This document shows, piece after piece, positions 3 to 28,113 of a stretch of DNA of 32,000 bases; position 1 is the stretch's first letter, and the number at the start of each line of letters is the position of its first letter. The position numbers were made by a program, and so were the translations under genes. The stretch covers positions 1 to 32,000 of the forward strand of contig JAFXOY010000093.1 in assembly GCA_017528375.1 (NCBI GenBank), in the 5' to 3' direction. The notes under the pieces were generated by a model. It searched no databases, was not told where the DNA came from, and was given only the letters and a program-made list of their open reading frames with translations. Source of the stretch: Clostridia bacterium (lineage in GTDB: Bacteria > Bacillota > Clostridia > TANB77 > CAG-508).

Positions 3-611
3 GAAATATATAATAATATTAATAAAAATCAAAAAGATGATACTTTTGAGAAAGATGATGATATATTAGATAAAAATTTAAATATTAATAAAATAAATAT
101 AGAAAATTTAATTATAAATATTAATAAAAAAATAGATTTAATTTCTGGAATTAATTTAATTTTCGATTCTAATAATAAAATTAGTGAAGAAAAATTAAAT
201 TATATTATAAAAATATTATCAGAAAAATATGATTTTATTATTATTGATACTTCGTCAGAATGTTTTTTTGAATATAATAAAGAATTAATAAAAATAAGTG
301 ATAAAAGTATTTTTTTGACAGAACCAAATCTGCTAGAAATAAGTAAAAGCAAACGCTTTTTAGAAATGTATTATTACAATTGGAAAATTGAAAAAAATAA
401 AATAAATATTATTTTTAATAAATTTAATAAAAATAGTATTGATATTAATTTATTAAAAAAATTATTTTATGATTATAAAATAATTGGAAAAATAAAATTA
501 AAAAATAATTATAATTTATTAATTAATAATAATTTTAAAAATATTAAAATAAAAAATAATTTAATAAAAAAATATAATAATTTTGGAAAAAATTTTTTAA
601 TAAATAATTAG
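3..611 (+). CDS. MinD/ParA-family P-loop ATPase, C-terminal part (5' end lies outside the window)
   Basis: Frame 3 is open from nt 3 to the TAG at 609-611. The ORF track only reports the part after an internal TTG at 315. The translation contains KYDFIIIDTSSECFF (the hhhhD(T/S) Walker-B-type box of MinD/ParA/CpaE ATPases), then SIFLTEPNLLEISKSKRFLE and INIIFNKF, in the usual order for this family. Extremely Asn/Ile/Lys-rich. Confidence 0.5.
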   Translation, partial: EIYNNINKNQKDDTFEKDDDILDKNLNINKINIENLIININKKIDLISGINLIFDSNNKISEEKLNYIIKILSEKYDFIIIDTSSECFFEYNKELIKISDKSIFLTEPNLLEISKSKRFLEMYYYNWKIEKNKINIIFNKFNKNSIDINLLKKLFYDYKIIGKIKLKNNYNLLINNNFKNIKIKNNLIKKYNNFGKNFLINN

Positions 612-621
612 GAGGTTTTTT

Positions 622-1332
622 ATGGAATTAATTCAAAATTTAAATAATAATTTATCAGAAGATATAAATATTAATAATTTACAAAATAATTTTTTAAAAT
701 CAAATATTGGACAAATTGCCAATACTGCCATTGATATTGGAATAAAAAGCTTAATGCCTGAATTTATTGAAAATGAAGTTATTGATGTTAAAAATGCAAT
801 AATTAATGGAGGAATAAAAGAAGGAATAAATACGGCAATTGAAAATGCAATAAATTTAGGAAAAAATATTTTAGGTATTAATAATAGTGATATCAAGTCT
901 ATTGGTGAGGCAAAAAGCATTTTAGAAAATGGTAATTTAATAAATGGTATTTCCAAAAGTATGGACTTTGTTTTGGAAGGGTTATCAGATAATAATATTA
1001 TTTCAAAAAATACTTTTAATTTAATAAAAGGAGGTAAAGATTTAATATTAAATAATATTAGTACTAATGTAGAAAATGAATTCGAAAATGAAATTAAATC
1101 TTTGAAAAAAATAGAAAAATATATTTCTAATTGGGAAAAATATTATTCAGAAAAAAATATGGATGGTTTAAATAAAGAATATAAAAAAATAGAAAAACAA
1201 ATAAAAAATATTTTACCATTAAAAAATATAATTAATAATATTAATAAAATAGAAAATATTAATGAATTAATTAAAAATAATGAAAATTTTGATTTTAGCG
1301 AATATTATTTAGACTTGGCAGGTAGTTTTTAA
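622..1332 (+). CDS. hypothetical Asn/Ile/Lys/Glu-rich protein (236 aa), family not recognised
   Basis: AGGAGG at 610-615 lies 6 nt before the ATG at 622, directly after the preceding stop. The frame is long and open in very AT-rich DNA. There is no signal peptide or TM segment. The N-terminal half has Gly/Ile/Asn repeats and the C-terminal half looks like a charged coiled coil. Confidence 0.55.
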   Translation: MELIQNLNNNLSEDININNLQNNFLKSNIGQIANTAIDIGIKSLMPEFIENEVIDVKNAIINGGIKEGINTAIENAINLGKNILGINNSDIKSIGEAKSILENGNLINGISKSMDFVLEGLSDNNIISKNTFNLIKGGKDLILNNISTNVENEFENEIKSLKKIEKYISNWEKYYSEKNMDGLNKEYKKIEKQIKNILPLKNIINNINKIENINELIKNNENFDFSEYYLDLAGSF

Positions 1333-4126: not shown

Positions 4127-4158
4127 AAAAGCTACAGTTTATTGTAGCTTTTATTTTT
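4127..4158. terminator. bidirectional intrinsic terminator between convergent gyrA and dnaI
   Basis: Stem aaaagctaca (4127-4136) pairs with tgtagctttt (4143-4152). It is flanked by A and T runs. Confidence 0.7.
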
Positions 4159-5170
4159 ATCTATTAGAAAATCTAATATCATCACCAAAAAATCTGCAAA
4201 TATTATAATTACCAATTAATCTTGATGTAATTCTTTCTCCATATGTTTTATTTAAAATTGGTAAACTTAAATTAGTTGAAATAATTGTTTTTAGACATTT
4301 ATTATTTTGATTTAATAAACGCGTATTTATAATATTAAATAATTCGGTAAATTTAATATTATTTAAGGATTCGGTTCCTAAATCATCAATAATTAATAAA
4401 TCAACATCCAATAAATTTTTATAAGTTTCATCTGAAGAATTATTTTTATTAAATTTATAATCAATTATTGTATCTAACATAATAGGTGCGGTTTGATATA
4501 AAACTGTTTTGTCTCTATCTATCATTTCCCTAGCAATACAGCTTGATAAAAATGTTTTTCCAAGACCAGTATTTCCAGTAAATAATAAATTTTTTTCATT
4601 AGGGTCATCAAAATTATTAATAAAATTCATACATACATTTTTTATTAAAGTAATATTTTCCCTTGGTGAAATATCTGAATTATATTTTTCTTTATCAACT
4701 TTATCAGAATATTTTTCAAGAGAAAAATTATCAAAATTTTGTGTTTCTAAATTAGCAATATTTGATTTATTATATTTAATATTATAAATTTCTTGTTTTA
4801 AACAATTACACATTACGGTACTAATATTATTTGTAACATAACCGGTGTCGTTACATAATTTACATGAATAATTAGGCAATAAATAATCATCAGGTAGATT
4901 TAAAGTCTTAATTATTTGAGCTTTTTCAGCTTTAAGAGTATCTACTTTATTATTTAATTCGTCTAATAATTCTTTCGAATTAGACATAATCAAAGCTTTA
5001 GCAGTTGAAATACCAACTCTTGTTAGTTCATCATCTATATCTTGTAATCTAGGATTTTCAAAATATAATTTACTTTTTCTTACTTCTAAATCTTTTTCAG
5101 CAAATAATCTTTTTTGTTCATATTTTTTTAAAAGGTTTGATAAAATACTACTGTCTACCATTTGGATCAC
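4157..5170 (-). CDS. dnaI: primosomal helicase loader, DnaI/DnaC family AAA+ ATPase
   Basis: Walker A GNTGLGKTFL and Walker B LLIIDDLG. The N-terminal Cys cluster (CKLCNDTGYV...CNC) is typical of the DnaI zinc module. The gene overlaps the upstream DnaD-domain gene, as in the B. subtilis dnaB-dnaI operon. Confidence 0.8.
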   Translation of the reverse strand: MIQMVDSSILSNLLKKYEQKRLFAEKDLEVRKSKLYFENPRLQDIDDELTRVGISTAKALIMSNSKELLDELNNKVDTLKAEKAQIIKTLNLPDDYLLPNYSCKLCNDTGYVTNNISTVMCNCLKQEIYNIKYNKSNIANLETQNFDNFSLEKYSDKVDKEKYNSDISPRENITLIKNVCMNFINNFDDPNEKNLLFTGNTGLGKTFLSSCIAREMIDRDKTVLYQTAPIMLDTIIDYKFNKNNSSDETYKNLLDVDLLIIDDLGTESLNNIKFTELFNIINTRLLNQNNKCLKTIISTNLSLPILNKTYGERITSRLIGNYNICRFFGDDIRFSNR

Positions 5171-6146
5171 TTCCTAACTTATTTGTATTATTTATATAGA
5201 AATTGTCCCAATTTGAGAACTCTCTTTGATCATAATTCGTATATCCAGTTTGTTTTTCTAATTTTTTAATATTTTGATTTTTATTTTTTGTTTCTAATAT
5301 ATATGAATTAATTTCTGCAGGAGTCTTTAATTTTCTTTCATGCCAGTCAGTCAAAATTTTATCTAAATAATCAAAGCTAATATTAGATTTCGAAGTAGTT
5401 TTTTTCAAAGCTAATTCGATTACATCAAAATTATAACCATAATCTACATTCCACCTTGAAACATATCCTTCTTCATACTGTGATAACTGTCTATTTAAAT
5501 TTAATTTTTTAGAAATTGTATGACTAATACTTTTTAGTTTCTCTTGTTTTTCCATATATAACTCTAAATCATTAAATGTTTTAACATGATTTTGAGACCA
5601 ACTTTCTGCAACAGTTTGTATATAATTTCTATGAAGTGCAGAATGATTAAAGCAAACTCTAAATAAAGCAATCATAACTTCTTCATCAAAATTATATTTT
5701 TTAAACCATAAATCAATATCACTATACCATGATGGAGACATGATACCTTGGAAAAATTCGTTATTAATATTTTCAATTGCTTTAGAACGATATTGATTTT
5801 TAGCGGATTTTTCAAGTTCTTCTGGAGATGAAGTAATTTTAGGATTATATAATTTGTGTAATTCAATTTCTTGTAAATTATTTAAAATATAACCTGTATT
5901 TTTCTTTGTAATAATTTTTTGTTCTTCCCAGAATTTAATTCCATCTTGAATAGTTTTTAATGGAAGTTGTAACTTTTTAGCTAAATCATTAACTTTAATA
6001 TCTTTTCCATACTTAGAAAGAAACATCATATATAAATATATCTTTACGTAGTTTCCATCAGCATATGATAAGTATTCAGAAAAGAATACATCAGGTATTG
6101 ATGTTGTTGAAAAAATAAATGGTGAATCACTTTGCTCTAATTTCAT
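5148..6146 (-). CDS. DnaD-domain replication initiation / membrane attachment protein (B. subtilis DnaB/DnaD-like)
   Basis: 332 aa. N-terminal winged-helix-like region (YVKIYLYMMFLSKYGK). C-terminal DnaD-type repeat (YVSRWNVDYGYNFDVIELALKK...FDYLDKILTDWHERKLKT). Translationally coupled to dnaI by a 23-nt overlap. Confidence 0.7.
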   Translation of the reverse strand: MKLEQSDSPFIFSTTSIPDVFFSEYLSYADGNYVKIYLYMMFLSKYGKDIKVNDLAKKLQLPLKTIQDGIKFWEEQKIITKKNTGYILNNLQEIELHKLYNPKITSSPEELEKSAKNQYRSKAIENINNEFFQGIMSPSWYSDIDLWFKKYNFDEEVMIALFRVCFNHSALHRNYIQTVAESWSQNHVKTFNDLELYMEKQEKLKSISHTISKKLNLNRQLSQYEEGYVSRWNVDYGYNFDVIELALKKTTSKSNISFDYLDKILTDWHERKLKTPAEINSYILETKNKNQNIKKLEKQTGYTNYDQREFSNWDNFYINNTNKLGSDPNGRQ

Positions 6147-6283: not shown

Positions 6284-7435
6284 TTGTATATATATTCTCA
6301 TAAAAAGAAAAAAATAAAAAGAGTTTCAATAATAGTATCTATAGTAATAATAGCAATATTAAGCTTTATAAAATTATATCAAATATATGCAGGTATAGAA
6401 ATTAAAGATTATAACTCTGTAGATGCCAGACGTTTATCTCAAACAGTAGAGGAAAAGAAAAATGAGGATTTAACAATAACACAAATGCTAGAAAATACTA
6501 CGGATAGTGTCGTTGGAGTCTCTAAACTAAAAAATAACGGAAATACAATTTTTAGTGAAAACGGAGTATCCCAAATGGGAATTGGAAGTGGAGTTATAAT
6601 ATCAGAAAAAGGATTTATTCTAACCAATGAACATGTATCAGGTCCTAAAAATAGTACATGTTATGTAACAATGGAAGACGGAAAAAACTATAATGCAAAT
6701 GTAGTTTGGTCCGATCCTAATTTAGACTTAGCAATTATAAAAATAAATATGAAGTGTATAAGTTATGCAAAATTAGGAGATTCAGATTTGTTAAAAGTAG
6801 GAGAAAGCGTATATGCAATAGGAAATCCTATAGGATTTGAATTTCAAAAAACAGTAACATCAGGAATTGTAAGTGCATTAAATAGAACAATTATTTTTAA
6901 AGAAAATAATCAAGCTAATGGAAGCTCAAGTAAAGAAGAACATGAAGTATATATGTCAAATTTAATTCAAACAGATGCAACAATAAATCCAGGAAATAGT
7001 GGTGGACCATTAATAAATAATAATGGTGAAATTGTAGGAATTAATACTGTTAAAATTACTTCAGCTGAGGGAATTGGTTTTGCAGTACCAGTTAATAGTA
7101 TCAAACCTATAATTGATAGATTAGAAACTGAAGGAAAATTTGAAGAAGCAAGTATAGGAATTTTTGCTTATGATAAAAACGTAATTCCGTATTTAAATAC
7201 AAATATAAAATTTGAAACAGGAATTTATATTGCACAAATATCACTTGATTCGCCAGCAATTACAAGTGGCCTACAAATTGGTGATGTAATAACAAAAATT
7301 GATGATAAATCATTAGAAAAAATGTGTGATTTACGAGAATATATTTATACTAAAAAAATTGGAGATAAAGTAACTTTAACAGTTTTAAGGAATAATAAAG
7401 AAAGAAATGTTGAAATTAAATTAAGTAAAAAATAA
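6284..7435 (+). CDS. htrA: HtrA/DegP-family serine protease with N-terminal membrane anchor and C-terminal PDZ domain
   Basis: Catalytic-triad contexts TNEHV, DLAIIKI and GNSGGPL. PDZ-like tail (GLQIGDVITKIDDK). TM segment VSIIVSIVIIAILSFI. A TTG start at 6284 follows aagggag; no in-frame ATG precedes the TM segment. Confidence 0.88.
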   Translation: MYIYSHKKKKIKRVSIIVSIVIIAILSFIKLYQIYAGIEIKDYNSVDARRLSQTVEEKKNEDLTITQMLENTTDSVVGVSKLKNNGNTIFSENGVSQMGIGSGVIISEKGFILTNEHVSGPKNSTCYVTMEDGKNYNANVVWSDPNLDLAIIKINMKCISYAKLGDSDLLKVGESVYAIGNPIGFEFQKTVTSGIVSALNRTIIFKENNQANGSSSKEEHEVYMSNLIQTDATINPGNSGGPLINNNGEIVGINTVKITSAEGIGFAVPVNSIKPIIDRLETEGKFEEASIGIFAYDKNVIPYLNTNIKFETGIYIAQISLDSPAITSGLQIGDVITKIDDKSLEKMCDLREYIYTKKIGDKVTLTVLRNNKERNVEIKLSKK

Positions 7436-7456
7436 TTATTAAAGGAGTGAATTATT

Positions 7457-8986
7457 ATGATGGAAAAATCATTATGGATAGCTGATAGCTGCGAAACAAA
7501 TTACCCAGAATTAAAAGAAGATATTAATGCTGAAGTATGTATAATAGGTGGAGGTATTGTAGGAGCAATAACTGCATATTTATTAGAAAAAAATGGGGTA
7601 AATGTTGTAGTTCTTGAAAAGGATAAAATATGTATGGGAGTGACTGCAAACTCTACGGCCAAACTAACTAGCCAACATGGGTTATTTTATAAATATTTAG
7701 AAAATGAAAATGGATTAAATTTTGCAAAAAAATATTTAGAATCAAATGAAGAGGGAATAAAATTAGCAGAAAAAATAATAAAAGAAGAAACTATAGATTG
7801 TGATTATGAAAAAAAGGATGCATATGTTTTTGCAACTAATGAAAGTGAACTTAAGAAAATTGAAGAAGAAATTGATGTATTAAAACGAATTAATTATGAT
7901 GCAGAACTCGAAAAAAATATAGATATTCCAGTTGAAAAATGTTTAGGAGCTGTTAAGTTTAAAAATCAAGCACAATTTAATAGCAGAAAATATGTTATAG
8001 AATTATTTAAAATTGTAAGTAGAATTGGAGGAAAAATATATGAAAATAGTAAAGTAGAAAATATCCAGCATGATAATGCGGCATATAATATAAGTGCAAA
8101 TGGTTATAATGTAAAGGCTAAAAATGTTGTAATTAGTACACATTATCCAATAAAAAATTTTCCAGGAATGTACTTTAGCAAAATGTATCAAGACAAATCA
8201 TATGCAATTGCAGTAGATACAAAGCAAGATGAGAACGAAATTATAGATGGAATGTTTATACAATCATGTGATCCCGTAATATCTTTTAGAACTGCAAAAT
8301 ATAAAGATAAAAATTTATTAATAGTAGCTGGTTCTGGACATAGAACAGGACAAGCTGAAGGAAAAATAGAAGACAGTTTTGTTAATTTGGAAAATTATAT
8401 AAAAAAATATTATCCTAATGCAGAAACAAAATTCAAGTGGTCTACAGAAGATTGTGTAACACTAGACAAAGTTCCATATATAGGTCAGTTTTCAAATTTA
8501 TTACCAAACATGTATGTTGCTACAGGATTTAAAAAATGGGGAATGAGTACGTCACATGTAGCAGGAAAATTAATATCAGATTTAATATTAGGTAAAGAAA
8601 ATGAATATGTTGATATTTACAAAGCAACAAGGTTAGAACCAATAAAAAATATTAAAGAGTTTGGAAACATGTTAAAAGAAAGCACATATTCATTATTAAT
8701 TAATAAAATAAAACCAGCAAAAGATATTTTAGAAAAAATACCTTTAGGAGATGGAGGAATAGTTGAAATAGATGGGGATAAAGTAGGCATATATAAAAGA
8801 GATGATGGTGAAATTTTCGCTGTAAAGCCATATTGTGGTCATTTAGGTTGTTTAGTATCATGGAATAATTTAGAAAAAACATGGGATTGCCCATGCCATG
8901 GCTCTAGATATGATTATATGGGAAATATTATTACTGAACCTACTGTAAAAAAATTAGAAAAAATAAATATTGAATATGATGAATAA
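7457..8986 (+). CDS. FAD-dependent oxidoreductase (DAO family) fused to a C-terminal Rieske [2Fe-2S] domain (YhfW-like)
   Basis: N-terminal dinucleotide-binding motif VCIIGGGIVGAITAYLL. C-terminal Rieske motif CGHLGC...CPCHGSRYD. AGGAG RBS upstream. Confidence 0.85.
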   Translation: MMEKSLWIADSCETNYPELKEDINAEVCIIGGGIVGAITAYLLEKNGVNVVVLEKDKICMGVTANSTAKLTSQHGLFYKYLENENGLNFAKKYLESNEEGIKLAEKIIKEETIDCDYEKKDAYVFATNESELKKIEEEIDVLKRINYDAELEKNIDIPVEKCLGAVKFKNQAQFNSRKYVIELFKIVSRIGGKIYENSKVENIQHDNAAYNISANGYNVKAKNVVISTHYPIKNFPGMYFSKMYQDKSYAIAVDTKQDENEIIDGMFIQSCDPVISFRTAKYKDKNLLIVAGSGHRTGQAEGKIEDSFVNLENYIKKYYPNAETKFKWSTEDCVTLDKVPYIGQFSNLLPNMYVATGFKKWGMSTSHVAGKLISDLILGKENEYVDIYKATRLEPIKNIKEFGNMLKESTYSLLINKIKPAKDILEKIPLGDGGIVEIDGDKVGIYKRDDGEIFAVKPYCGHLGCLVSWNNLEKTWDCPCHGSRYDYMGNIITEPTVKKLEKINIEYDE

Positions 8987-8992
8987 TAAAAA

Positions 8993-9025
8993 AGACAAGT
9001 AAATAAAAATTACTTGTCTTTGATA
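8993..9025. terminator. hairpin terminator shared by the oxidoreductase gene (+) and tRNA-Arg (-)
   Basis: Stem agacaagta (8993-9001) pairs with tacttgtct (9011-9019). The T-run is best on the minus strand. Confidence 0.5.
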
Positions 9026-9028
9026 GTA

Positions 9029-9105
<77 letters not shown>

Positions 9106-9118
9106 AAAACTATATATT

Positions 9119-9147
9119 ATTATAACTGTTTTTTATTATTATTTCAA
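9119..9147 (-). promoter_or_regulatory. promoter of tRNA-Arg(ACG)
   Basis: On the minus strand: TTGAAA (9142-9147), 17 nt, TATAAT (9119-9124). The tRNA 5' end is 13 nt downstream. Confidence 0.55.
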
Positions 9148-9186
9148 GAGAAAAATGTTTTTTTATAAAAATTTTTTAAAAAACTC

Positions 9187-9215
9187 TTGAAAAATGTATT
9201 AGATTATGTTATATT
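9187..9215 (+). promoter_or_regulatory. promoter of tRNA-Pro
   Basis: TTGAAA (9187-9192), 17 nt, TATATT (9210-9215). It lies back to back with the tRNA-Arg promoter. Confidence 0.5.
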
Positions 9216-9247
9216 ATATTAGTCATCAAAAAGATGAAAAAAATAAT

Positions 9248-9323
9248 CGAGGCGTAGCGCAGTTGGTAGCGCGCGTGGTTTGGGACCATGAGGTCGCAGG
9301 TTCGATCCCTGTCGCCTCGACCA
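9248..9323 (+). tRNA. tRNA-Pro (anticodon UGG)
   Basis: Cloverleaf folded by hand. Acceptor stem cgaggcg/cgcctcg, anticodon loop ttTGGga, T-loop ttcgatc, encoded CCA. 76 nt. Confidence 0.92.
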
Positions 9324-9325
9324 TA

Positions 9326-9366
9326 AAAAGCTATTTTCTAAATATATTAGAAAATAGCTTTTTTAT
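9326..9366. terminator. bidirectional terminator between tRNA-Pro and the convergent T4SS-like operon
   Basis: Perfect 15-bp stem: aaaagctattttcta (9326-9340) pairs with tagaaaatagctttt (9348-9362). T/A runs on both sides. Confidence 0.75.
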
Positions 9367-9367
9367 T

Positions 9368-9655
9368 TTAAAATTCTTTTTTAAACAAATAAATTTTCTG
9401 TTTAATTAAAAATCTAACAACATACTTCAAAGTGTAAACCGGAGATTCATTATTAAATCCAACTATAGTAATTAATAAAACCGGAAAAGATAAAAGTGTA
9501 AAAATAAAGATTCTAATAGAAATATTAGCATCAATATTTCTTAATAAAAAATAAATAAAAACATCCCACACGATATTAACTATAGCAGTTGGATAATCAA
9601 TAATTCCAAATATTCTATTTTTAAATTTGTAATTTTTAGGAATAATAAACTTCAT
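9368..9655 (-). CDS. small two-TM membrane protein, PrgI/TcpE (VirB3-like) family candidate
   Basis: The start was moved to the ATG at 9655 (MKFIIPKNYKFKNRIFGIIDYPT...), which has RBS aaagga 8 nt upstream; the track start at 9682 is a TTG. The pattern IPKxxxxxKxxIFG, then two hydrophobic helices and a basic tail, matches PrgI-family proteins of Gram-positive conjugation systems. Assigned by motif recall only. Confidence 0.45.
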   Translation of the reverse strand: MKFIIPKNYKFKNRIFGIIDYPTAIVNIVWDVFIYFLLRNIDANISIRIFIFTLLSFPVLLITIVGFNNESPVYTLKYVVRFLIKQKIYLFKKEF

Positions 9656-9682
9656 AAAACAAATCCTTTCTATAAAAAGCAA

Positions 9683-10564
9683 TTATTTTAATAAATATTT
9701 TAATGATCTAATATTAGTAGAAACATCTGTAGAAATTCCACCAATTAATTCTCTAATATAAGAGTTTGCTTTTGTTAATGCATAAATTGAACCAATACAA
9801 ATTACTTTAGAAAACATATCAGTTGATGAAAAGTTTGTAGAAAATACTACTAATAAAATAATTGAAACAAGCGATTGGAGTAATAGCAAAGACAAAATAG
9901 CTTTAAACCAAGATTTGAAAAACCATGAGGTTGAAGAATTAATTAAAGTTAAAATTGCAAAAGGAGTTATTAAAATAAATACTTTTAAAATGACATATCG
10001 TAAAGAATAAGTAAATAATAAATTCAGCAAGCTTACGGAAACAAAGCTTTTTAACAAGCCATCAAGTGAAAATACATTTACACTTGTAAAATCTGTGGTT
10101 ATAACACTATTTAATTTTAAAACTAACTCAGAAAAACTGATATTGCAATTAAAAACATGTTCACCAACTTCTCTTATTGATGATGATAAAAGGGAATTAA
10201 TATTTATTAATTGTTCCATTAAAAAATATGAAGAGTTAGCTAAAATTGCATATATAAATAATTTAAATAAAAATTGAAAAGGTTGCTCTGTTTCAGTTGA
10301 TAAATAATGTGCGGCAAAATACCTTATCACATAAAAAAGAGCAAAACCAAGTAGTAATGAATTTGCAACTAAAATTAATCCATGGGTTGATGACGTTCCA
10401 AAGAATGAAAGCATAAAATGATCTCTTAAAATATCAGTATCAATAAAAATTATATCATCTAAAATTGAATAAATATTATTATCAATAGACGAAAAAAGGG
10501 AAGAAAATAAAGTATTAATTGTTGTAATAATTGTTTGAACAATTGATGCTTGTGATTCTTGCAT
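9683..10564 (-). CDS. polytopic (about 6 TM) membrane protein, VirB6/TrbL-like candidate
   Basis: 293 aa with hydrophobic helices throughout. The call rests on its position between a VirB2-like and a VirB3-like gene. AGGAG RBS upstream. Confidence 0.45.
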   Translation of the reverse strand: MQESQASIVQTIITTINTLFSSLFSSIDNNIYSILDDIIFIDTDILRDHFMLSFFGTSSTHGLILVANSLLLGFALFYVIRYFAAHYLSTETEQPFQFLFKLFIYAILANSSYFLMEQLININSLLSSSIREVGEHVFNCNISFSELVLKLNSVITTDFTSVNVFSLDGLLKSFVSVSLLNLLFTYSLRYVILKVFILITPFAILTLINSSTSWFFKSWFKAILSLLLLQSLVSIILLVVFSTNFSSTDMFSKVICIGSIYALTKANSYIRELIGGISTDVSTNIRSLKYLLK

Positions 10565-10596
10565 TTAATAAAAACTCCTTTCTAATATATTTAATC

Positions 10597-10962
10597 CTAT
10601 CCAGCTAACAAGTTTTGAATAGTAGATAAAACTAAGTCTAAAACTAAAATCAGTGCATATGATACCAGAGCAGTTCTAATTAATTTTTTTCCAATTCTCA
10701 TTCTTTCATCATCACCAAAACTAAATTTTTTCATAAATATCCCGGAAGCTACGGCGACTGCAGCCGCAGGAGTTGCTAAGCTTACCATCCAAGATTTAAT
10801 TTTCTCAAAAGCTACATTTAAGGTATTAATTAATTTGGGATATGCAGCAAAAGAAAAGTTAGATAAAATAAAAATAAATATAATTGAAAAAATAAAAATA
10901 GTAGAAATATTATTAACATTAATAAATTTTTTTATATATTTCATAAAAATCAGCCCTTTCAT
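10597..10962 (-). CDS. VirB2/TrbC-like (or Maff2-like) small secreted two-TM protein
   Basis: Long signal peptide ending SFA/AYP. Then TM1 (ATPAAAVAVASGIFM), a short charged loop (KKFSFGDDERMRIGKK) and TM2 (ALVSYALILVLDLVLSTI), which is the classical T4SS pilin topology. Its ATG overlaps the upstream stop (ATGA at 10959-10962). An alternative ATG at 10944 has RBS aaaggg. Confidence 0.5.
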   Translation of the reverse strand: MKGLIFMKYIKKFINVNNISTIFIFSIIFIFILSNFSFAAYPKLINTLNVAFEKIKSWMVSLATPAAAVAVASGIFMKKFSFGDDERMRIGKKLIRTALVSYALILVLDLVLSTIQNLLAG

Positions 10963-12686
10963 AAAAATAATTTTTCATTTTTAAAATAAGGAATTAATTC
11001 TAATTTTTGTGGGGGTAAAATAGAATTTCCATTTGATAAAAAAGCGACACAATTAAATGTATCTAAATTTTGAGTGAAATAATTTGTATCAAAAATAAAG
11101 TCATGTTGAATTACTGAACTAATGCTTTCAGTAATACTTGAATTTTTTGAATTTAAGGAATTAGTAAAATAATTAAAAACAGTTTCTTTCGCGTTTTCGG
11201 AAACACTTTTTGAAATTTTTTGTTTATCTTCTTTTCCGATTTGTTTTTGAGCTTCCTCAATTGTAAAAGCATCATCGGTTCGAAGCCAAATTTTATTAAT
11301 TAAATTTTGAATAATAACTTTAACACTGGATTCATTATTTAAAGTTTTAAGAAGCGAAGTGTAGCTTTGTGTTGCAACAATATTTATGCACTTAGCTTCT
11401 CTACTTTGAGCAAAAAAGTCTGCATCAGTTGATGTGACATACTCGTGATATTCATCAGAAATAAAAGCAACAGTTCTTGAAACATTATTTTGAGCTAAAC
11501 TAGACAATACTTCAGTTTGAAAGTCAAGTTTTAAATATGCAGCTATAATTTTAGATAAATTTTTATATTCCGAAATATTCATATTTAAAATTACAATTTT
11601 TCCTTTATTAAGAATATCTGAAAGCGAATTCAAATTTTCTTCAGATTTATCTGGATTAAAAGTATGTAAGACTTGATAATCAGAAACAAAACAATTGGTA
11701 ATTCTTGTTATTTCAGATTTTAAAATACACATAGTACGATCATCTAACTTCAAAAATTCGTTTTCAAAAAAAGTAATGGCAGTTAGTAAATTATAGCAAT
11801 CTTGTTCATTGAATTCATTTTTTAAAAACATGCTTTTAAGTAAATCGATTTTGGAATAATAATAATTAGTATCAGTAATTAGTTTATGCAATTCGCTGAA
11901 ATTTACATAGTTATCGTTATATAATCTACACAGCTTAATTGCTTGTTCTATAATTTGTTCAGCCTTATCTAACCAATACGATTCTGAATTATTTTCAGAA
12001 AATAATAATAAAATAGTTTTTAATCTATTTGCTAAAATCGAGGCTTTAAGATTAGGTTTGTTTAAAGGGTTATATTTATATTTTCCACCAAGTTCAATAA
12101 CTATTAAATCGTCAAGTCTATTAAATTGTTTGCAAAATTCTGTTACTTGGAAATGATAATTACCTTTTACATCTAAAATAAGCATTCCAATTTTTTTATC
12201 TGGATTGTTATTTTGATAATAAATTAATTGTTTAGTAAATGGATACATAGCACTGCTAGTTTTTCCAGACCCAATGGTTCCGGTAATTATCATGTTCTGA
12301 TATAACCCTTTTTCTGGAACAATTACAGAATTATTATTTTTATCTTTTCCAATTAATAACTGCAAGCTATTTTTATCCAGTGAAGTTTTTGACTTTATTA
12401 TATTTGAATTTTTATTTATGGAATTATTTTCTATATGAGCATTAAAATGATTAATAAAAAATGAGAAAATAGAATTTGAAATAAATAGAGTATTAAACAA
12501 ACTACATACAATAAAAACAATTTTTATTGTAATCCATAACTTTGGTTGTTTTTCACAAATATCAAAAGGAACTAAGCCATAATATATATAAACAGAATCA
12601 AGTTTATAAATTGGTGAAAAAATAAAATATCCAATTGTAAAAATTGATAGTAAAATAAGTAAGTTAAAAATTAATCTTTTTTTCAT
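10959..12686 (-). CDS. type IV coupling protein-like ATPase (TraG/TraD/VirD4 family)
   Basis: 575 aa with two N-terminal TM helices. Motifs appear in T4CP order: Walker A ITGTIGSGKTSS (nt 12255-12281), LILDVKGNY, YNPL, ESYWLDKA, Walker-B-like VAFISDEYHEY, and NIVATQSYTSL (the TraG-D_C-type Q-S box). Strong RBS AAGGAGG. Confidence 0.65.
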   Translation of the reverse strand: MKKRLIFNLLILLSIFTIGYFIFSPIYKLDSVYIYYGLVPFDICEKQPKLWITIKIVFIVCSLFNTLFISNSIFSFFINHFNAHIENNSINKNSNIIKSKTSLDKNSLQLLIGKDKNNNSVIVPEKGLYQNMIITGTIGSGKTSSAMYPFTKQLIYYQNNNPDKKIGMLILDVKGNYHFQVTEFCKQFNRLDDLIVIELGGKYKYNPLNKPNLKASILANRLKTILLLFSENNSESYWLDKAEQIIEQAIKLCRLYNDNYVNFSELHKLITDTNYYYSKIDLLKSMFLKNEFNEQDCYNLLTAITFFENEFLKLDDRTMCILKSEITRITNCFVSDYQVLHTFNPDKSEENLNSLSDILNKGKIVILNMNISEYKNLSKIIAAYLKLDFQTEVLSSLAQNNVSRTVAFISDEYHEYVTSTDADFFAQSREAKCINIVATQSYTSLLKTLNNESSVKVIIQNLINKIWLRTDDAFTIEEAQKQIGKEDKQKISKSVSENAKETVFNYFTNSLNSKNSSITESISSVIQHDFIFDTNYFTQNLDTFNCVAFLSNGNSILPPQKLELIPYFKNEKLFL

Positions 12687-12814
12687 AATCCTCCTTTTTT
12701 AGTTTTAATTTTGAACCTTGTTGATTATGCAAAATTTTTATATCTATAAATGTGTATATAGTATAAAAACAAAGAATTAAATTAATAATAAATAATATGA
12801 AAAATAAATCTAAA

Positions 12815-12843
12815 GTTTTAATGGGAAATCTCCTTTCTGTCAA
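12815..12843 (-). promoter_or_regulatory. possible promoter of the T4SS-like operon
   Basis: On the minus strand: TTGACA (12838-12843), 17 nt, TAAAAC (12815-12820). The -10 element is weak. Confidence 0.3.
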
Positions 12844-12931
12844 ATAAATTATCTGACTTAAATAGAATTCTTTACTTTCTAAAGCATTTGTGATAAAATA
12901 AATACCAATACTATAAAGGAAGGTGAAATTA

Positions 12932-13117
12932 ATGGAAATAAATAAAGATACAAGAATAGGTGAATTATTACACGCTGCACCTGAAAAGGCAGAAATATTA
13001 TTAGAAGCTGGAATGCACTGTTTAGGATGCCCTGCTTCTCAAGCTGAAACATTAGAAGAAGCATGCGAAGTACATGGAATTAATGTTGATGAATTAGTAG
13101 AAAAATTAAATGCATAA
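12932..13117 (+). CDS. DUF1858-type small protein (hybrid-cluster-protein-associated redox disulfide domain)
   Basis: MEINKDTRIGELLHAAPEKAEILLEAGMHCLGCPASQAETLEEAC matches the conserved DUF1858 pattern with its CxxC. The ATG at 12932 (RBS aaggaagg) is preferred over the track GTG at 12923. Confidence 0.8.
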   Translation: MEINKDTRIGELLHAAPEKAEILLEAGMHCLGCPASQAETLEEACEVHGINVDELVEKLNA

Positions 13118-13203
13118 ATAAAAACAAGTAATGAATTAACTTTGAACAGTATAACACGTTAATATTGATTTGTCATCAAAAATCGTACGTCAAAGTTCGA
13201 CAA

Positions 13204-13245
13204 AAAAGGAAAAATTATATTAATATAATTTTTCCTTTTTATTAT
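13204..13245. terminator. bidirectional terminator
   Basis: Perfect 16-bp stem: aaaaggaaaaattata (13204-13219) pairs with tataatttttcctttt (13224-13239). A T-run follows. Confidence 0.7.
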
Positions 13246-13248
13246 TTT

Positions 13249-13824
13249 TTAAATTTCAAATATTTTATTTAATTCCCCTTTAGTCAATTCTAAATTTTTT
13301 CCGTTTTCAATTTTATAAACTTTAATATCAGGATATTTTTCAATCACTTCATCAGCCATTTTTAAATACTCACGTTGCTGAGCAATACTATTATCACCAC
13401 TAAATTTAGCATAAGCTGGTTCAACCTTGCCATCACGTTTTAATCTTTCCTCATATATACTTTCATCTTCTAAATAAAGAGTTAAATAATAAATATCAAA
13501 ATCTAATTTACTAAATTGTTCTAATAAATCATTATAAACTTCTGTAAAAGTATAATCCTTTTTTCCTAATCTACAATAATTTTCCTCAGTGAAGAAAGTT
13601 CTGTCAAATAATAGATTTATATCTAAATTTTCAAGCTTTTTAATATAATCTAACAAATCATAATACATTTTTTTACTTTTTTCTAAACCTGCAATTGAAG
13701 AATCGCTAACACCACTTAATCTATATAAGTTAGTATGTTTGATTGTGTATCTCAAATAGTCTGTAATAGTAGTTTTACCAGCACCTTGAGCACCTTCGAC
13801 AACAATAATTTTCGATCTTGCCAT
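13249..13824 (-). CDS. P-loop nucleotide/nucleoside kinase-like protein (thymidylate-kinase-like layout), function unknown
   Basis: Walker A VEGAQGAGKTT close to the N-terminus, a DR-containing box (LLFDRTFF) and a basic LID-like RLKRDGK. The start is set at the ATG at 13824 (MARSKIIVVEG). In-frame ATGs at 13833 and 13851 are alternatives. Confidence 0.55.
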   Translation of the reverse strand: MARSKIIVVEGAQGAGKTTITDYLRYTIKHTNLYRLSGVSDSSIAGLEKSKKMYYDLLDYIKKLENLDINLLFDRTFFTEENYCRLGKKDYTFTEVYNDLLEQFSKLDFDIYYLTLYLEDESIYEERLKRDGKVEPAYAKFSGDNSIAQQREYLKMADEVIEKYPDIKVYKIENGKNLELTKGELNKIFEI

Positions 13825-16378: not shown

Positions 16379-16407
16379 TTGACAGTAAATTTTTTTATAT
16401 TTATAAT
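16379..16407 (+). promoter_or_regulatory. consensus sigma-A promoter of the LPXTG surface protein gene
   Basis: TTGACA (16379-16384), 17 nt, TATAAT (16402-16407). The ORF-track start at 16379 is actually the -35 box. Confidence 0.6.
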
Positions 16408-16456
16408 TTATGTAGTGCTAATGCATAAGAAAAAAGTAAAAAAAGGAGGGAAACTG

Positions 16457-18028
16457 ATGAAAAAATTTAAAAGTGCGATGATTGCAGCATTATCAGGGAT
16501 TATGCTATTTAGCAGTTGCTCATTTTTTGCACCAGGTGTAAAAGCTGTTGAAACAGCAACTGAAAAAGACTCTACAAATCCATATCTTTTCTCTTATCCA
16601 AGAGATGCGTTTGAATTTAGTGCAGAAGAAATGTTACATGTGTATGCATTGAATTCTAGTAGTGACTGGACTGAGAATTATACAAAACATTTTTATGTAA
16701 GACACAGAATGGATTTAACAGATAAAAATGTTATACCATTAAGATCATACAATGAAGATGGGACATTCATGAATACAAGTGCAGCAGAAGATAAATGGAG
16801 CGATGGAAGAATAGATGCAGTTGATGCAAGTAATATTTTAGCTTTAGGAGCACACGTTAACGGAATAGCTAATTTACCAGAAGTATATTGGCCACAACCA
16901 GTTAATGATATTTTATGGTCACTAGCTAAAGCATTAAATGTATCAAAAGATGATGTTACATTAGAATCAGAAGCTATTTATCAAAAAATTGAAGGACTTG
17001 CAGGTGCTGAAAAAGAATTAATAACAGTAATTTCTAGTACAACAGGTCCAACACCACAGAATGATGCGTCTGTCTTAAATTATACAACATTAGATAGAAA
17101 ATTGTATATTCAAAATTACAAAGAAAGACATCCAGAAATGACAGATGAGCAAATAGCTGAAAAATTCGAAGATGAAAAAGCTCGTCCAACACAAATGACA
17201 ACTAGAATAACAGTTACAGCACCAAACGGAGACAAATACAGAATGGTACTTGGAAATGATAACAAATTCTATTTATTATCACCAAATGCACCAAAAGCTG
17301 AATTCAAAACAACACTTGATTATGCATCTGAAGAGAAAGGTAAAATGGATGGAGACACATATCTTCCACCATATTACGAAAATGAAGAAAAAAATGCTAA
17401 GAAAGATTTAGATGCAACAGCAATCATCAAATCAACAACAAATGAAGAAATCATCAAAACAAACGGTGTTGAATTAACAACAGATGGAAAAGCTAATAGC
17501 CAAGGATGGTATTATCCAGATGTAAATGATAAACGTACAATTGCTAAAGTTTATCCATTTGATAAATATGACAACACAACAGATAACGGAGCAGTAAAAG
17601 AAACTGTAAAACTAACAGGAGCTGAAGGTGGAGAAGATTCTCAATCACCATCAATAAGATGGACTTTCAGACTAATCAACAGAGATGATAAAGAAAATGC
17701 AGATGGAAGTATAACTGTTACTTTAACATATAACTTACCTGTTGATCCAGACAGCATCCCAGAAGGATGGACACCAGTTTATGATAAAGATGGAAAAACA
17801 ATCCATGCTATCACAAAAACAATCAAAAAAGGTGAAAACTATGACAAAGATGTCACAGTAAAAAGAAATGGACCAATAGATGAAAAAGTTACAACACATG
17901 TTAAAAAAGAATGGGAAAAACTTTCACCAACATTACCACAAACAGGTATATTCTCTGTAGTTTTAGTAGTAATAGTTGCTGGAGCTGCAGTATTTGCAAT
18001 AACAAGATATCGCAAAATTAATAATTAA
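16457..18028 (+). CDS. sortase-anchored (LPXTG) cell-surface protein, passenger domain unrecognised
   Basis: The start was moved to the ATG at 16457, after AGGAGG. Signal peptide MKKFKSAMIAALSGIMLFSSCSFFAPGVKA. The C-terminal sorting signal is LPQTG, a hydrophobic helix and RYRKINN. Confidence 0.85.
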   Translation: MKKFKSAMIAALSGIMLFSSCSFFAPGVKAVETATEKDSTNPYLFSYPRDAFEFSAEEMLHVYALNSSSDWTENYTKHFYVRHRMDLTDKNVIPLRSYNEDGTFMNTSAAEDKWSDGRIDAVDASNILALGAHVNGIANLPEVYWPQPVNDILWSLAKALNVSKDDVTLESEAIYQKIEGLAGAEKELITVISSTTGPTPQNDASVLNYTTLDRKLYIQNYKERHPEMTDEQIAEKFEDEKARPTQMTTRITVTAPNGDKYRMVLGNDNKFYLLSPNAPKAEFKTTLDYASEEKGKMDGDTYLPPYYENEEKNAKKDLDATAIIKSTTNEEIIKTNGVELTTDGKANSQGWYYPDVNDKRTIAKVYPFDKYDNTTDNGAVKETVKLTGAEGGEDSQSPSIRWTFRLINRDDKENADGSITVTLTYNLPVDPDSIPEGWTPVYDKDGKTIHAITKTIKKGENYDKDVTVKRNGPIDEKVTTHVKKEWEKLSPTLPQTGIFSVVLVVIVAGAAVFAITRYRKINN

Positions 18029-22921: not shown

Positions 22922-23060
22922 GGTATGAAAAAAATCTAGCCTTTGTGTGGAGGATATTTTTCAATAAAAACCTATGAATCTTGTCAGGTCCGGAAGGAAG
23001 CAGCAATAAGTAGTCATTTTTATGTGAAAAATACTTCCACAGAAAGGCTAGAAGTAAATT
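22922..23060 (+). ncRNA. ffs: signal recognition particle RNA (4.5S/scRNA); ends approximate
   Basis: Contains the universally conserved domain IV sequence gtcaggtccggaaggaagcagc (22984-23005). It is closed by the long helix tctagcctttgtgtggagg (22935-) with cttccacagaaaggctaga (23034-23052). It sits directly upstream of dnaX, as in B. subtilis (scr-dnaX-yaaK-recR). Confidence 0.85.
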
Positions 23061-23139: not shown

Positions 23140-23158
23140 CAAAAAAGAGGTGAAATCT

Positions 23159-24922
23159 ATGTCATATACAGCATTATACAGAAAATTTAGACCAATTAAA
23201 TTTAGTGAAATTGTAGGCCAAGAGCATATAACAAGAACATTAAGAAATCAAATAATAGCAAACAGAGTTGGACATGCATATCTATTAACAGGTGGACGTG
23301 GAACAGGAAAAACTTCTGCAGCAAAAATTCTAGCAAGAGCCATAAACTGCCTAAATCCACAAGATGGCGAACCATGTAATGAATGCGAAATATGTAAAGC
23401 AGCAATTCAAGGTTCATTAACAGATATAGTGGAAATGGATGCAGCTTCAAACAACAGCGTTGAAGACATTAGATCAATAAGAGAAGAAGTAAACTTTTTA
23501 CCAACTGTTGCAAAATACAGAGTATATATAATAGATGAGGTTCACATGCTTTCAGTTGGTGCATTTAATGCGCTTTTAAAAACATTAGAAGAACCACCAG
23601 AACACGTTAAATTTATATTAGCAACAACAGAACCACAAAAACTTCCAGCAACAATATTATCAAGATGTCAACGTTTTGATTATAAAAAAATATCACCAGA
23701 AAATATAAAATCAAGATTAGAATTTATATGTAAAGAAAGCAATATAAATATTACAGATGAAGCATTAAAAACAATTTCAGTTTTAGCTGAAGGCGCAATG
23801 AGAGATGGATTAAGTATTTTGGAAAGATGTGTGCAAGAAGGCGAAGACGAAATAAATGATGACAAAGTAAAAGAACTAGTTGGAATTCCAAAAGTAGAAT
23901 ATATTAATAAAATTGTAAATTCAGTAATAGATTATAATGTTGAAGAAACATTACAAAACATAGATACAGTAATAGCAGACGGAAAAGATTTAAATAATTT
24001 AATTTGGGAAATTATAAAATATGTAAAAGACATTCTAGTATTTAAATCAAGCGGAAGCTTAAGTTTATATAATGAAAATGAATTATCAAAAATAAAAGAG
24101 ATATCAGAAAAAACATCAAAAGATAGATTACTAAAAATAATTTATGATTTATCTGAACTTGCAAATGACTTAAAAATGACAACACAAAAAACAATTATGT
24201 TAGAAGTTGGAATTATGAAGTTATGCAATCAAGAAGCTAGCAAGTCAAGCAATCTAAATGGAGAAAGTTCAAACGGAACAATGCAAGCTGCCCAACAATC
24301 TGGAGCACAACAAGCTAGCATACAGCCAGCAGTCTACGCAAGTTTTCCAAACGAGGCACCTGCCGGAAATAACGGAAACATGCAATCAGGTAACTCAGCA
24401 TCAAACAATAAAGAACTTGAAAGTAAAATAAAAGAATTAGAAAACAAAATAAACAAAATTACAAACCTAGTTATCCACAATCAAGGAACAAATGTGGATA
24501 ACTCATCTGAAAAATCAAGCAATACAAGAAAAACTATAAATAGAAATACATCAAACGGACCAACAAATATAGTAAAAAATATAGCACCAACCGGAAAGAA
24601 AGTAGAAGGATGGGGCAATATGGTAAAAGGTCTAAAAGAAAGCGGAGATGTAATGTTATACATGAACCTGCTAAATACAACAGCAACAGAAATAAACGAC
24701 ATGACAGTAGGAATTGTATTCCCAGATGGAATAACGCCATTTGGACAAAGCATTTTAGACAAACCAGAAAGTGTAGCAGCACTTTCAAAAGTAATATCAA
24801 TGGAATACGGAAAAACAATGCAAGTAAGATATATAGATGCAAAGCATCCAGAACAAACAAAGGATATAGTTGGCGAAATTTCAAAAGAAATGGGAATGCC
24901 AATCAATGTCATAGATGAATGA
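23159..24922 (+). CDS. dnaX: DNA polymerase III subunits gamma/tau
   Basis: MSYTALYRKFRP...GQEHI, Walker A GGRGTGKTS, the zinc module CLNPQDGEPCNECEIC, Walker B IIDEVHML and sensor SRCQRF. The ATG at 23159 follows gaggtg; the track GTG at 23150 is less likely. Confidence 0.95.
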   Translation: MSYTALYRKFRPIKFSEIVGQEHITRTLRNQIIANRVGHAYLLTGGRGTGKTSAAKILARAINCLNPQDGEPCNECEICKAAIQGSLTDIVEMDAASNNSVEDIRSIREEVNFLPTVAKYRVYIIDEVHMLSVGAFNALLKTLEEPPEHVKFILATTEPQKLPATILSRCQRFDYKKISPENIKSRLEFICKESNINITDEALKTISVLAEGAMRDGLSILERCVQEGEDEINDDKVKELVGIPKVEYINKIVNSVIDYNVEETLQNIDTVIADGKDLNNLIWEIIKYVKDILVFKSSGSLSLYNENELSKIKEISEKTSKDRLLKIIYDLSELANDLKMTTQKTIMLEVGIMKLCNQEASKSSNLNGESSNGTMQAAQQSGAQQASIQPAVYASFPNEAPAGNNGNMQSGNSASNNKELESKIKELENKINKITNLVIHNQGTNVDNSSEKSSNTRKTINRNTSNGPTNIVKNIAPTGKKVEGWGNMVKGLKESGDVMLYMNLLNTTATEINDMTVGIVFPDGITPFGQSILDKPESVAALSKVISMEYGKTMQVRYIDAKHPEQTKDIVGEISKEMGMPINVIDE

Positions 24923-25420: not shown

Positions 25421-26020
25421 ATGGGGTATTACTCACCATCTATAGAAAAATTAATTGAAGCATTTGAGAAGCTACCTAGCATAGGAAATAAAACAGCAGC
25501 TAGACTTGCGTTTCATATGTTAAATGCTAGTGAAACAGAAACAAACGAATTTATTGAGGCAATTACAAATGCTAAAAAGAATTTAAAATATTGTTCAAAA
25601 TGCTTTAATATTACAGATACAGACCCTTGTCCAATATGTGCTAATGCTGGAAGAGATCAGTCAACAATATGTGTTGTAGAAGATGTAAAAGATGTTGTAG
25701 CAATGGAAAGAACTCATGAATTCAAAGGTGTATATCATGTTTTACATGGCGTTGTTTCACCAATGAATGGAATTGGACCAGATGATATAAAAATAAAAGA
25801 ACTTTTAGCAAGATTAATGGATGGACAAGTAAAAGAAATAGTTTTAGCAACAAATCCAAGGGTAGAAGGTGAAGCAACAGCAATGTATATTTCTAAATTA
25901 GTTAAACCACTTGGTGTGAAGGTTACAAGAATAGCACATGGTATTCCAGTTGGTGGAGATTTAGAGTATACAGATGAAGTTACTTTAAGCAAAGCTTTGG
26001 AAGGAAGACGAGAACTGTGA
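25421..26020 (+). CDS. recR: recombination protein RecR
   Basis: [21 protein letters not shown] (HhH), the C4 zinc finger [16 protein letters not shown], and Toprim ([10 protein letters not shown]...). Confidence 0.95.
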
Positions 26021-27317: not shown

Positions 27318-27430
27318 AAAATCCTTCTTTCTAATTAATAAATGTTTTATTTGATGAAATCATTTTACCACATAATAAAAGAAAAATGAATATTTTTTCA
27401 AAAATTGGAGAAAATTTAAAATTGAAGATG

Positions 27431-27500: not shown

Positions 27501-27522
27501 AATTAATAGAAAGGAAAGTAAA

Positions 27523-28101: not shown

Positions 28102-28113
28102 GAAGGAGGAAAA

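Follow-up and report, generated by a model that had tools for sequence, protein, structure and literature searches.

The 32,000-nucleotide stretch of DNA analysed here (the window: positions 1 to 32,000 of contig JAFXOY010000093.1 from the Clostridia bacterium assembly GCA_017528375.1) contains an operon of five genes related to type IV secretion systems (T4SSs). These five genes are one half of a chromosomally fixed and vertically inherited apparatus derived from a T4SS. The other half, which consists of a split VirB4-family ATPase, a ParA/MinD-like ATPase and a protein of approximately 240 amino acids (aa), is located beyond the dnaB/dnaI-like genes and gyrA. We consider it likely that the two halves represent a domesticated, split and relaxase-less T4SS of the monoderm type, which lies near a replication-gene cluster and is analogous to the T4SS of Patescibacteria. 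A wider proposal, for and against which we would give about equal weight, is that the apparatus is a core trait of an order-level lineage of gut Clostridia, that its coupling protein consists of two polypeptides, and that it serves the cell's own use and not that of a mobile element. Under this wider proposal, the cell's own use may be the delivery of effectors or nucleoproteins to neighbouring cells or the exchange of chromosomal DNA, and the operon of a sister clade, which has no VirB4 nearby, may be a coupling-protein operon that works without VirB4.

The operon and its protein families

The operon is a tight run of open reading frames (ORFs) on the minus strand at positions 9368-12843. An earlier note on this DNA, prepared from the sequence alone, had described it as a module of four genes. 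All ORFs of the run were found at the coordinates given there, but the conserved genes number five, as a small gene encoding 59 aa (orf59) is conserved in 143 of 147 related loci. The related loci were collected in a species-level genome scan, with one genome per species, and in a metagenome scan. They belong to the window's own clade (clade A) and to a sister clade (clade B, which includes L089-L091); L001-L006 are contigs identical to the window. The family assignments proposed earlier for the other four proteins were supported by Pfam matches in the window or in orthologues, by Foldseek searches and by hidden Markov model (HMM) links to an outgroup conjugative element, L180. These proteins are a coupling ATPase, a VirB2-like pilin, a VirB6/TrbL-like protein and a PrgI/VirB3-like protein, all of them related to T4SS components.

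The gene at 10959-12686 (minus strand) encodes the type IV coupling protein (T4CP), a VirD4/TrwB-type ATPase of 575 aa that was assigned by Pfam and by its motifs. It matches TrwB_AAD_bind (PF10412) at 34.1 bits (cut-off 20.5) and TraG-D_C (PF12696) at 24.6 bits (cut-off 22), and there is a partial match to NCBIfam SXT_TraD. The motifs on which the assignment had originally been based, GTIGSGKTS (residues 135-143), AFISDEYHEY (FISDEYHEY at residues 408-416) and ATQSYTSL, are indeed present and are invariant in 12 relatives. The two N-terminal helices described with them were also found, as hydrophobic segments at residues 2-27 and 48-91. When a structural model of the protein, with a predicted local distance difference test score (pLDDT) of 58, was searched with Foldseek, the top 25 matches were DndH-C, Cagbeta, DotL and TrwB (E=4e-4 to 3e-2, TM-scores of approximately 0.3). 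The profile of the family matched no PDB chain at E<=0.01, so the protein belongs to a divergent subfamily. This subfamily is fairly small, since only 220 of 1.84 billion cluster representatives match it at E<=1e-30. On plasmids, tblastn with the window and outgroup T4CPs as queries found relatives in 25-30 of 72,556 records, with identities of at most 31%; most of these plasmids are non-mobilisable, and the context of the gene in them is uninformative.

The gene for the pilin-like protein (10597-10962, minus strand) encodes a VirB2/T4SS-pilin-like protein of 121 aa. Its ATGA overlap with the T4CP gene at 10959-10962, which had been taken as the start of the gene, exists, but the start is probably the next ATG at 10944, favoured by orthologues and gene callers, which gives a protein of 115 aa. 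Alignment of the family showed a signal peptide with predicted cleavage after FSFA, two hydrophobic helices and a short charged loop, in which KKFSFGD(D/E)ER is invariant. The window protein matches T4SS_pilin (PF18895) with E=2e-4 and 21.8 bits, under the cut-off of 26.6. Among its orthologues, T4SS_pilin was matched by 33 of 34 and TrbC (PF04956) by 10 of 34 at E<=0.01. In addition, the family HMM matches the pilin genes that adjoin the T4CP genes in the conjugative outgroup loci L180, L177 and L175, with E-values of 1e-14 to 1e-18.

The next gene (9683-10564, minus strand) encodes a polytopic membrane protein of 293 aa similar to VirB6/TrbL. The window protein itself has no Pfam match, and TrbL/VirB6 families were matched by 14 of 39 orthologues (best E=1.6e-4). 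In a Foldseek search with a model of pLDDT 57, the top seven of 350,000 PDB chains were TrwI/VirB6 of R388 (E=2e-3 to 0.1); the family profile found no match among PDB sequences.

The last gene encodes a PrgI/VirB3-like protein with two transmembrane helices. Its ORF is open over 9368-9682 (minus strand), and the real start is probably the ATG at 9655 (MKFIIPKNY), where all orthologues begin, so that the gene spans 9368-9655 and encodes 95 aa. PrgI (PF12666) was matched by 5 of 38 orthologues, with a best E-value of 0.0046. The alignment of the family has an N-terminal P-NY---K--G motif, a two-helix hairpin and a C-terminal K-YLYKK motif. In the outgroup elements L180 (E=2e-16) and L177 (E=3e-14), its HMM matches the small gene immediately ahead of VirB4. 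In the window and in clade A, no VirB4 gene directly follows the VirB3-like gene; where VirB4 was found in clade A, it lies several kilobases away and on the other strand.

The fifth gene, orf59 (12664-12843, minus strand), encodes a small membrane protein with one transmembrane helix and an invariant C-terminal motif, HN-QGSKL-LK, and it overlaps the start of the T4CP gene by 23 nucleotides. Its own start is uncertain and may be the TTG at 12843 or an ATT at approximately 12822, which follows an AGGAGA ribosome-binding site. Of the 106 full-length T4CPs in the sister clade, 89 carry at their N-terminus a transmembrane and GxKL segment that matches orf59. The same segment was found in none of 18 outgroup T4CPs and in none of 120 T4CPs of the window's clade. 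Because T4CPs of the sister clade carry this matching segment, orf59 is regarded as a genuine gene that encodes a split-off or fusable subunit of the T4CP, and the distribution of the segment among these sequences indicates gene fission or a fusion partner.

Between the last stop codon of the operon and tRNA-Pro lies a 17-bp hairpin with flanking T/A runs (9325-9363), where the earlier note had placed a terminator. It is a likely bidirectional terminator and the sole terminator-like site found within 9000-13300. The tRNA-Pro(UGG) gene itself is at 9248-9323 (plus strand), with tRNA-Arg(ACG) just beyond. Rfam detected no regulatory RNA near the operon.

A role of the operon in anti-phage defence was also considered and was rejected: the single PADLOC match was to the C-domain of DndH, which is T4CP-like, and none was obtained for the other four proteins.

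Conservation, the second cluster and conjugative ancestry

At least 520 species-representative genomes encode a relative of the T4CP. The best 80 matching genomes are all metagenome-assembled genomes (MAGs) of uncultured gut Clostridia, with titles that include Clostridium sp. CAG:273, CAG:492 and CAG:567, which we take to denote members of GTDB order TANB77, family CAG-508. The host lineage as a whole is a large group of low-G+C spore formers. The samples behind these 80 MAGs include rabbit, Hadza, chicken and deer. A metagenome scan seeded with the outgroup T4CPs returned 80 more loci of the same clade and no outgroup contexts, and a scan of viral contigs found nothing. The gene order is alike in 163 loci (L001-L086 and L089-L171). 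Among the loci that cover the respective position, the pilin-like gene is present in 135 of 136, the VirB6-like gene in 118 of 118 and the VirB3-like gene in 110 of 110. The synteny comparison that had been proposed for this site therefore showed that the module genes are conserved together across relatives. The surroundings are constant as well, with an SDR gene and a divergent DUF1858 gene on one side and DnaB_2, a DnaI-like ATPase and a convergent gyrA on the other. In the sister clade, with a T4CP identity of approximately 44%, the same four-gene operon lies directly upstream of the DnaB_2 and DnaI-like genes and near gyrA.

The proposed estimation of the ratio of nonsynonymous to synonymous substitution rates (dN/dS) gave values of 0.03-0.2 for all five genes in pairs of species with unsaturated dS (0.1-0.8), including 0.11-0.14 for orf59 and approximately 0.1 for the T4CP, and thus indicated purifying selection. 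Distances between T4CPs correlate with those between the gyrA genes of the same loci (Mantel r=0.81), with 0 of 999 permutations reaching a value as high. Collectively, these results showed lineage-wide vertical inheritance of the operon under purifying selection and outside any mobile element.

Several side observations were made in the course of these comparisons. The DnaB_2 (DnaD/DnaB-like) and DnaI/IstB-like pair (4157-6146 in the window, minus strand) is on the same strand as the operon in both clades, and its linkage to the T4SS operon is strikingly stable across the roughly 44% identity level that separates the T4CPs. Read-through from the module into these replication genes is conceivable where no terminator intervenes. 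In one subclade (L032 2480-4474, L034 7293-7939 and L041 11862-13425), the VirB3-like gene separates the pilin-like gene from a VirB6-like ORF that seems shortened or split (153-175 aa). This order could be due to rearrangement or to frameshifts in the MAGs. A group of rabbit-gut species (L048 12127-12987, L049 7658-8398, L054 2758-3401 and L067 12114-12641) has 0.5-0.9 kb of extra sequence without a long ORF between the pilin-like and VirB6-like genes. Finally, two contigs of MAG CAKOWZ01 (L009 and L010) carry identical 21.8-kb copies of the locus, probably as an assembly or binning duplicate and not a true duplication; downstream of the module in these contigs, ORFs of 423 and 2082 aa replace the dnaB/dnaI-like genes.

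A VirB4 homologue is present in the same lineage on the far side of gyrA. A tblastn search of 2.56 Mb of loci with the VirB4 of L180 identified it in 43 clade A loci, with 39-47% identity over up to approximately 600 residues. In every case, the homologue lies just past gyrA and is encoded on the other strand from the module. Of the 53 loci with 2.5 kb or more of sequence past the 5' end of gyrA, 45 gave a match to a query from the clade itself (the VirB4 of L044); the misses include three sister-clade loci. Nearly all of the alignments are free of stop codons, and the stops in a few of them are at the C-terminal end. In loci with a clear start, the VirB4-family ORF encodes 588 aa and matches the Pfam families P-loop_TraG (6e-19), AAA_10 (2e-15) and DUF87. 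A separate ORF upstream of the 588-aa ATPase matches residues 127-201 of the L180 VirB4, so that the N-domain appears to be encoded separately. This ORF exceeds 100 aa and is distinct from the ATPase in L044 (12144-12452) and L029 (12211-12552); in L029, the short interval between the two ORFs has stops in every frame. All loci end before the region upstream of the N-domain ORF.

The order of this second cluster is VirB4, a ParA/MinD-like ATPase (AAA_31/CbiA, 207-410 aa), a protein of approximately 240 aa and gyrA. It is transcribed towards the module, with VirB4 two genes upstream of gyrA. The left end of the window contains the part of the cluster nearest to gyrA, which begins at 1669. The ORF at 3-611 (plus strand) encodes the C-terminal 202 aa of the ParA/MinD-like ATPase, a candidate member of the second cluster whose start is beyond the left edge of the window, and is 53-66% identical to ORFs of relatives that match Pfam AAA_31/CbiA/ParA. 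This region has a G+C content of 10.8%, with 5% at third codon positions (GC3), and looks like a spacer but is coding. Between it and gyrA, the gene at 622-1332 (plus strand) encodes a 236-aa protein, a candidate for the second cluster by synteny, which has 65 orthologues at the same position in related loci, no Pfam match and no homologue in the conjugative outgroups. The median dN/dS values of the VirB4, ParA-like and 236-aa genes are 0.13-0.15, with 0.15 for the ParA-like gene and 0.13 for the 236-aa gene. Because the genes between VirB4 and gyrA in relatives correspond to 3-611 and 622-1332, a VirB4 gene is predicted to the left of the window, and by synteny it most likely lies within approximately 1-3 kb of position 1.

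The ancestry of the apparatus was traced through two outgroup elements. One T4CP relative (P0262), which is 39% identical over its full length, is encoded in a true conjugative element, L180. The order of genes in L180 is relaxase (PF03432), MobC, a 106-aa gene, an 861-aa VirB4-like ATPase, a pilin, the T4CP, an M23 peptidase and a 315-aa membrane protein. HMM searches linked all four core families of the window to this element: the VirB3-like protein to the 106-aa gene (E=2e-16), the pilin-like protein to the pilin (E=5e-16), the VirB6-like protein to the 315-aa protein (E=3e-18) and the T4CP to the T4CP (E=6e-153). A second relative (P0249), 50% identical, is located on L177, where the order is T4CP, pilin, VirB6-like, M23 hydrolase, VirB3-like and VirB4; the VirB4 ORF is cut by the contig end and matches the L180 VirB4 at 1e-23. 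By these homologies, the window operon corresponds to the ancestral conjugation module minus its hydrolase and minus the adjacent VirB4. The apparatus thus descends from a monoderm conjugation module with the order T4CP, pilin, VirB6, M23 hydrolase, VirB3 and VirB4. With the L180/L177 relaxase and M23 hydrolase as queries, tblastn found no match in any of the approximately 170 clade A and B loci, and Pfam analysis of the gene calls for L001-L006 and L089-L091 showed no relaxase or integrase. Within the 32-kb window, gene calls, Pfam and tblastn revealed no VirB4, relaxase or integrase, in agreement with the earlier note.

Another relative of the T4CP (P0252, 712 aa, 39% identical) was observed on L172 (1323-14140) in a small element that bears an integrase, a 1000-aa winged helix-turn-helix (HTH) protein, an M23 peptidase and a Gp49/HTH toxin-antitoxin pair. 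No pilin, VirB6, VirB3 or VirB4 was detectable in this element, which may be a different kind of mobile element with a T4CP only.

Known systems, proposed function and alternative explanations

Compared to the monoderm conjugative modules of L180 and L177, the apparatus described here is built from the same protein families and shares the core gene order of L177. It differs from them in several respects. Its genes are fixed in the chromosome throughout the lineage, and no relaxase, MobC, M23 hydrolase or integrase is encoded nearby. VirB4 is located past dnaB/dnaI/gyrA, where two ORFs appear to encode its N-domain and the 588-aa ATPase, and the T4CP has either gained or split off the one-helix subunit encoded by orf59. 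Other modules of the monoderm type are encoded by pCF10 (PcfC/PrgH/PrgI/PrgJ) and pCW3 (Tcp locus).

The closest precedent is the T4SS of Patescibacteria (the candidate phyla radiation, CPR). These systems are of the monoderm type and derive from conjugative elements, yet they are chromosomal, occur lineage-wide and have a VirB2-like pilin (Quinonero-Coronel et al. 2025, PMC12102498). Most of them have no relaxase, they are often found near the replication origin, and they have been interpreted as co-opted and non-conjugative (PMC12102498). The parallel, which is one of analogy, extends to a different host phylum. In addition, the patescibacterial t4cp gene is rarely near other T4SS genes, whereas in the Clostridia the T4CP heads the main operon and it is VirB4 that is set apart. 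The archaeal Ced and Ted systems likewise arose from conjugation machinery by domestication and are encoded on the chromosome (Beltran et al. 2023, PMC9905601). They comprise VirB2-, VirB6- and VirB4-like parts, lack a relaxase and import DNA, and no coupling protein is among their listed parts (PMC9905601). In this they differ from the present apparatus, in which the T4CP is intact. The rvh T4SS of Rickettsiales is vertically inherited, chromosomal and non-conjugative, and its genes are scattered in several islets. It and the ComB system of Helicobacter pylori are of the diderm P-type with outer-membrane core complexes, and ComB has no T4CP. Thus, rvh and ComB resemble the apparatus described here as vertical, chromosomal and non-conjugative T4SSs and differ from it in being diderm P-type systems.

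A possible mechanism can be outlined from these homologies. The coupling ATPase, anchored by its own two transmembrane helices and by the separate 59-aa one-helix subunit, would recruit a substrate in the cytoplasm. The substrate would then be handed to a membrane channel of VirB3 and VirB6, energised by VirB4. The VirB2-like protein, after processing of its signal peptide, would build an extracellular conduit or a short pilus, and the ParA/MinD-like ATPase could position the machine. To judge from the gene content, the apparatus probably exports a host-encoded substrate, either a protein or a nucleoprotein, to the surface or to neighbouring cells for the benefit of the cell itself, and transfer of a mobile element is probably not its role. 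Export of a host substrate is favoured because a full T4CP has been kept and no relaxase gene lies beside it. Export is also argued for over import, because the T4CP is kept intact here whereas the parts listed for Ced and Ted include none.

Several points weigh against a domesticated, two-part T4SS of this kind. In this genome, VirB4 is predicted and not observed. The window opens within the ParA-like gene, the identical contigs (L001-L006) end earlier still, and the loci of the closest relatives (72-81% identity) do not extend past gyrA. In the sister clade (L089-L091), no VirB4 was found within 10 kb. The Pfam matches of the VirB6-like and VirB3-like families are weak and limited to fewer than half of the orthologues, and both AlphaFold models have low confidence (pLDDT 57-58), which makes the fold matches supportive only. 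A relaxase, a hydrolase or a VirB8-like gene may be encoded elsewhere, including upstream of VirB4. As the searches covered loci and not whole genomes, the system could still be conjugative, for example by mobilising the chromosome.

The earlier note had weighed two options, of which one was a decayed integrative and conjugative element (ICE) inserted at tRNA-Pro, in which stops had not yet accumulated. The lack of VirB4, relaxase and integrase in the window, the tRNA gene that abuts the operon and a G+C content slightly under the window mean (23.6% versus 28.2%) would all fit such a remnant. However, the G+C content and GC3 of the module fall inside the range of the neighbouring replication and housekeeping genes (21.6% G+C for the dnaI-like gene and 24.5% for the dnaB-like gene), and low G+C is therefore no sign of an island here. 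The proximity of the tRNA is also secondary, because the block that brings it there, with htrA, a DAO/Rieske oxidoreductase gene, tRNA-Arg(ACG) and tRNA-Pro(UGG) (6284-9323, between the module and the dnaB-like gene), was inserted only in the window's sublineage. This block is absent in most relatives, in which no tRNA adjoins the module and the module abuts the dnaB-like gene directly, ahead of the dnaI-like gene. A second copy of the tRNA-Pro 3' end was not found in the window; the note had itself reported this lack of a direct repeat, and its suggestion of a tRNA-Pro island is not borne out. Above all, the same genes occur in the same order and position in 163 loci, with approximately 520 species represented, their dN/dS is 0.03-0.2, and their divergence tracks that of gyrA (r=0.81). 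Given this fixed content and position, the purifying selection and the gyrA-like divergence, a decayed ICE remnant can be regarded as excluded.

The other option, a retained machine without VirB4, was partly right. The genes are intact and retained, but the description as VirB4-less does not hold for the lineage, in which VirB4 was found in 45 of 53 loci. The presence of VirB4 immediately beyond the operon, for which the note had allowed, is close to what is seen in relatives, except that dnaB/dnaI/gyrA separate it from the operon. In a stricter form of this option, the coupling ATPase alone would power the VirB2, VirB3 and VirB6 components, and the VirB4 on the gyrA side would serve something else. 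The five genes do form a tight operon of their own with a terminator, VirB4 is unlinked from its usual partner VirB3, and the sister-clade operon has no VirB4 within 10 kb on long contigs. Nevertheless, VirB4 is kept in synteny a few kilobases off and under purifying selection, the ancestral conjugative order has the VirB3-like gene directly before VirB4, and the VirB4 on the gyrA side has no other obvious machine, because only the ParA-like and 240-aa genes accompany it. Distance from virB4 is also not unusual for T4SS genes, as in Rickettsia, in which they are located in dispersed islands, and in the case of the patescibacterial t4cp (PMC12102498). Independence from VirB4 is therefore improbable in our view. 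Conjugation in the strict sense, by a fixed chromosomal T4SS that moves chromosomal or mobilisable DNA with a relaxase and an origin of transfer located elsewhere, is also unlikely, if slightly less so, and is a rival to be taken seriously. It would be consistent with a T4CP of the DNA-conjugation (TrwB/TraD) type that has kept its all-alpha domain and has relatives in relaxase-bearing elements, with relaxase searches that covered loci and not whole genomes, and with the example of archaeal Ced, which shows that domesticated T4SSs can move cellular DNA (PMC9905601). On the other hand, the L180 relaxase was unmatched in the approximately 170 clade A and B loci, the Pfam gene calls of L001-L006 and L089-L091 contain no relaxase, the M23 hydrolase of the ancestral module is gone as well, and T4CP genes are usually found near a relaxase gene (PMC12102498).

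Neighbouring genes and significance

The rest of the 32-kb window is occupied by housekeeping genes, including gyrA, the DnaB_2 and DnaI-like pair, htrA, SDR, CorA, the signal recognition particle (SRP) RNA, dnaX and recR, and the window gene calls thus agree with the earlier description of the flanks. The DUF1858 gene that diverges from the module (12923-13117, plus strand; 61-64 aa) is at that position in nearly all clade A loci and not in the sister clade. The true dnaX, a 590-aa gene at 23150-24922, lies between the SRP RNA (22949-23044) and recR (25421-26020). An ORF of 549 aa (16379-18028, plus strand) belongs to no Pfam family and is called as 523 aa on the identical contigs. The earlier statement that the window encodes no cell-wall hydrolase was incorrect, since sleB (Hydrolase_2) is present at 27430-27984 and forms a pair with ypeB (27430-29499, plus strand). 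SleB is the only such hydrolase in the window; it is a spore-cortex enzyme paired with YpeB and is unrelated to the T4SS. The presence of this pair implies that the organism is a spore former.

Co-opted T4SSs are well known in diderm pathogens, and descriptions from Patescibacteria and archaea have been added recently. Otherwise, bacterial conjugation machinery has generally been seen as a property of mobile elements (PMC9905601). In the searchable literature, no description of such a system in Clostridia was found under TANB77 or under domesticated or monoderm T4SSs. If the interpretation presented here is true, a T4SS fixed in the chromosomes of hundreds of abundant uncultured gut Firmicutes species would be new, and it would represent a lineage-defining machine of the cell envelope in a monoderm gut commensal. 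The features that look particular to this system are the operon led by the T4CP, the relocation and splitting of VirB4, the fission or fusion of orf59 and the T4CP, and the constant linkage to dnaB/dnaI/gyrA.

For annotation, the finding means that a MAG of these Clostridia with such a module should not on that account be described as carrying an ICE. The relocation of VirB4 and the fission or fusion of orf59 and the T4CP would provide a natural experiment on how a T4SS is rewired after domestication. Furthermore, the apparatus could point to contact-dependent interactions or DNA exchange, with a bearing on the ecology of these small-genome, hard-to-culture hosts.

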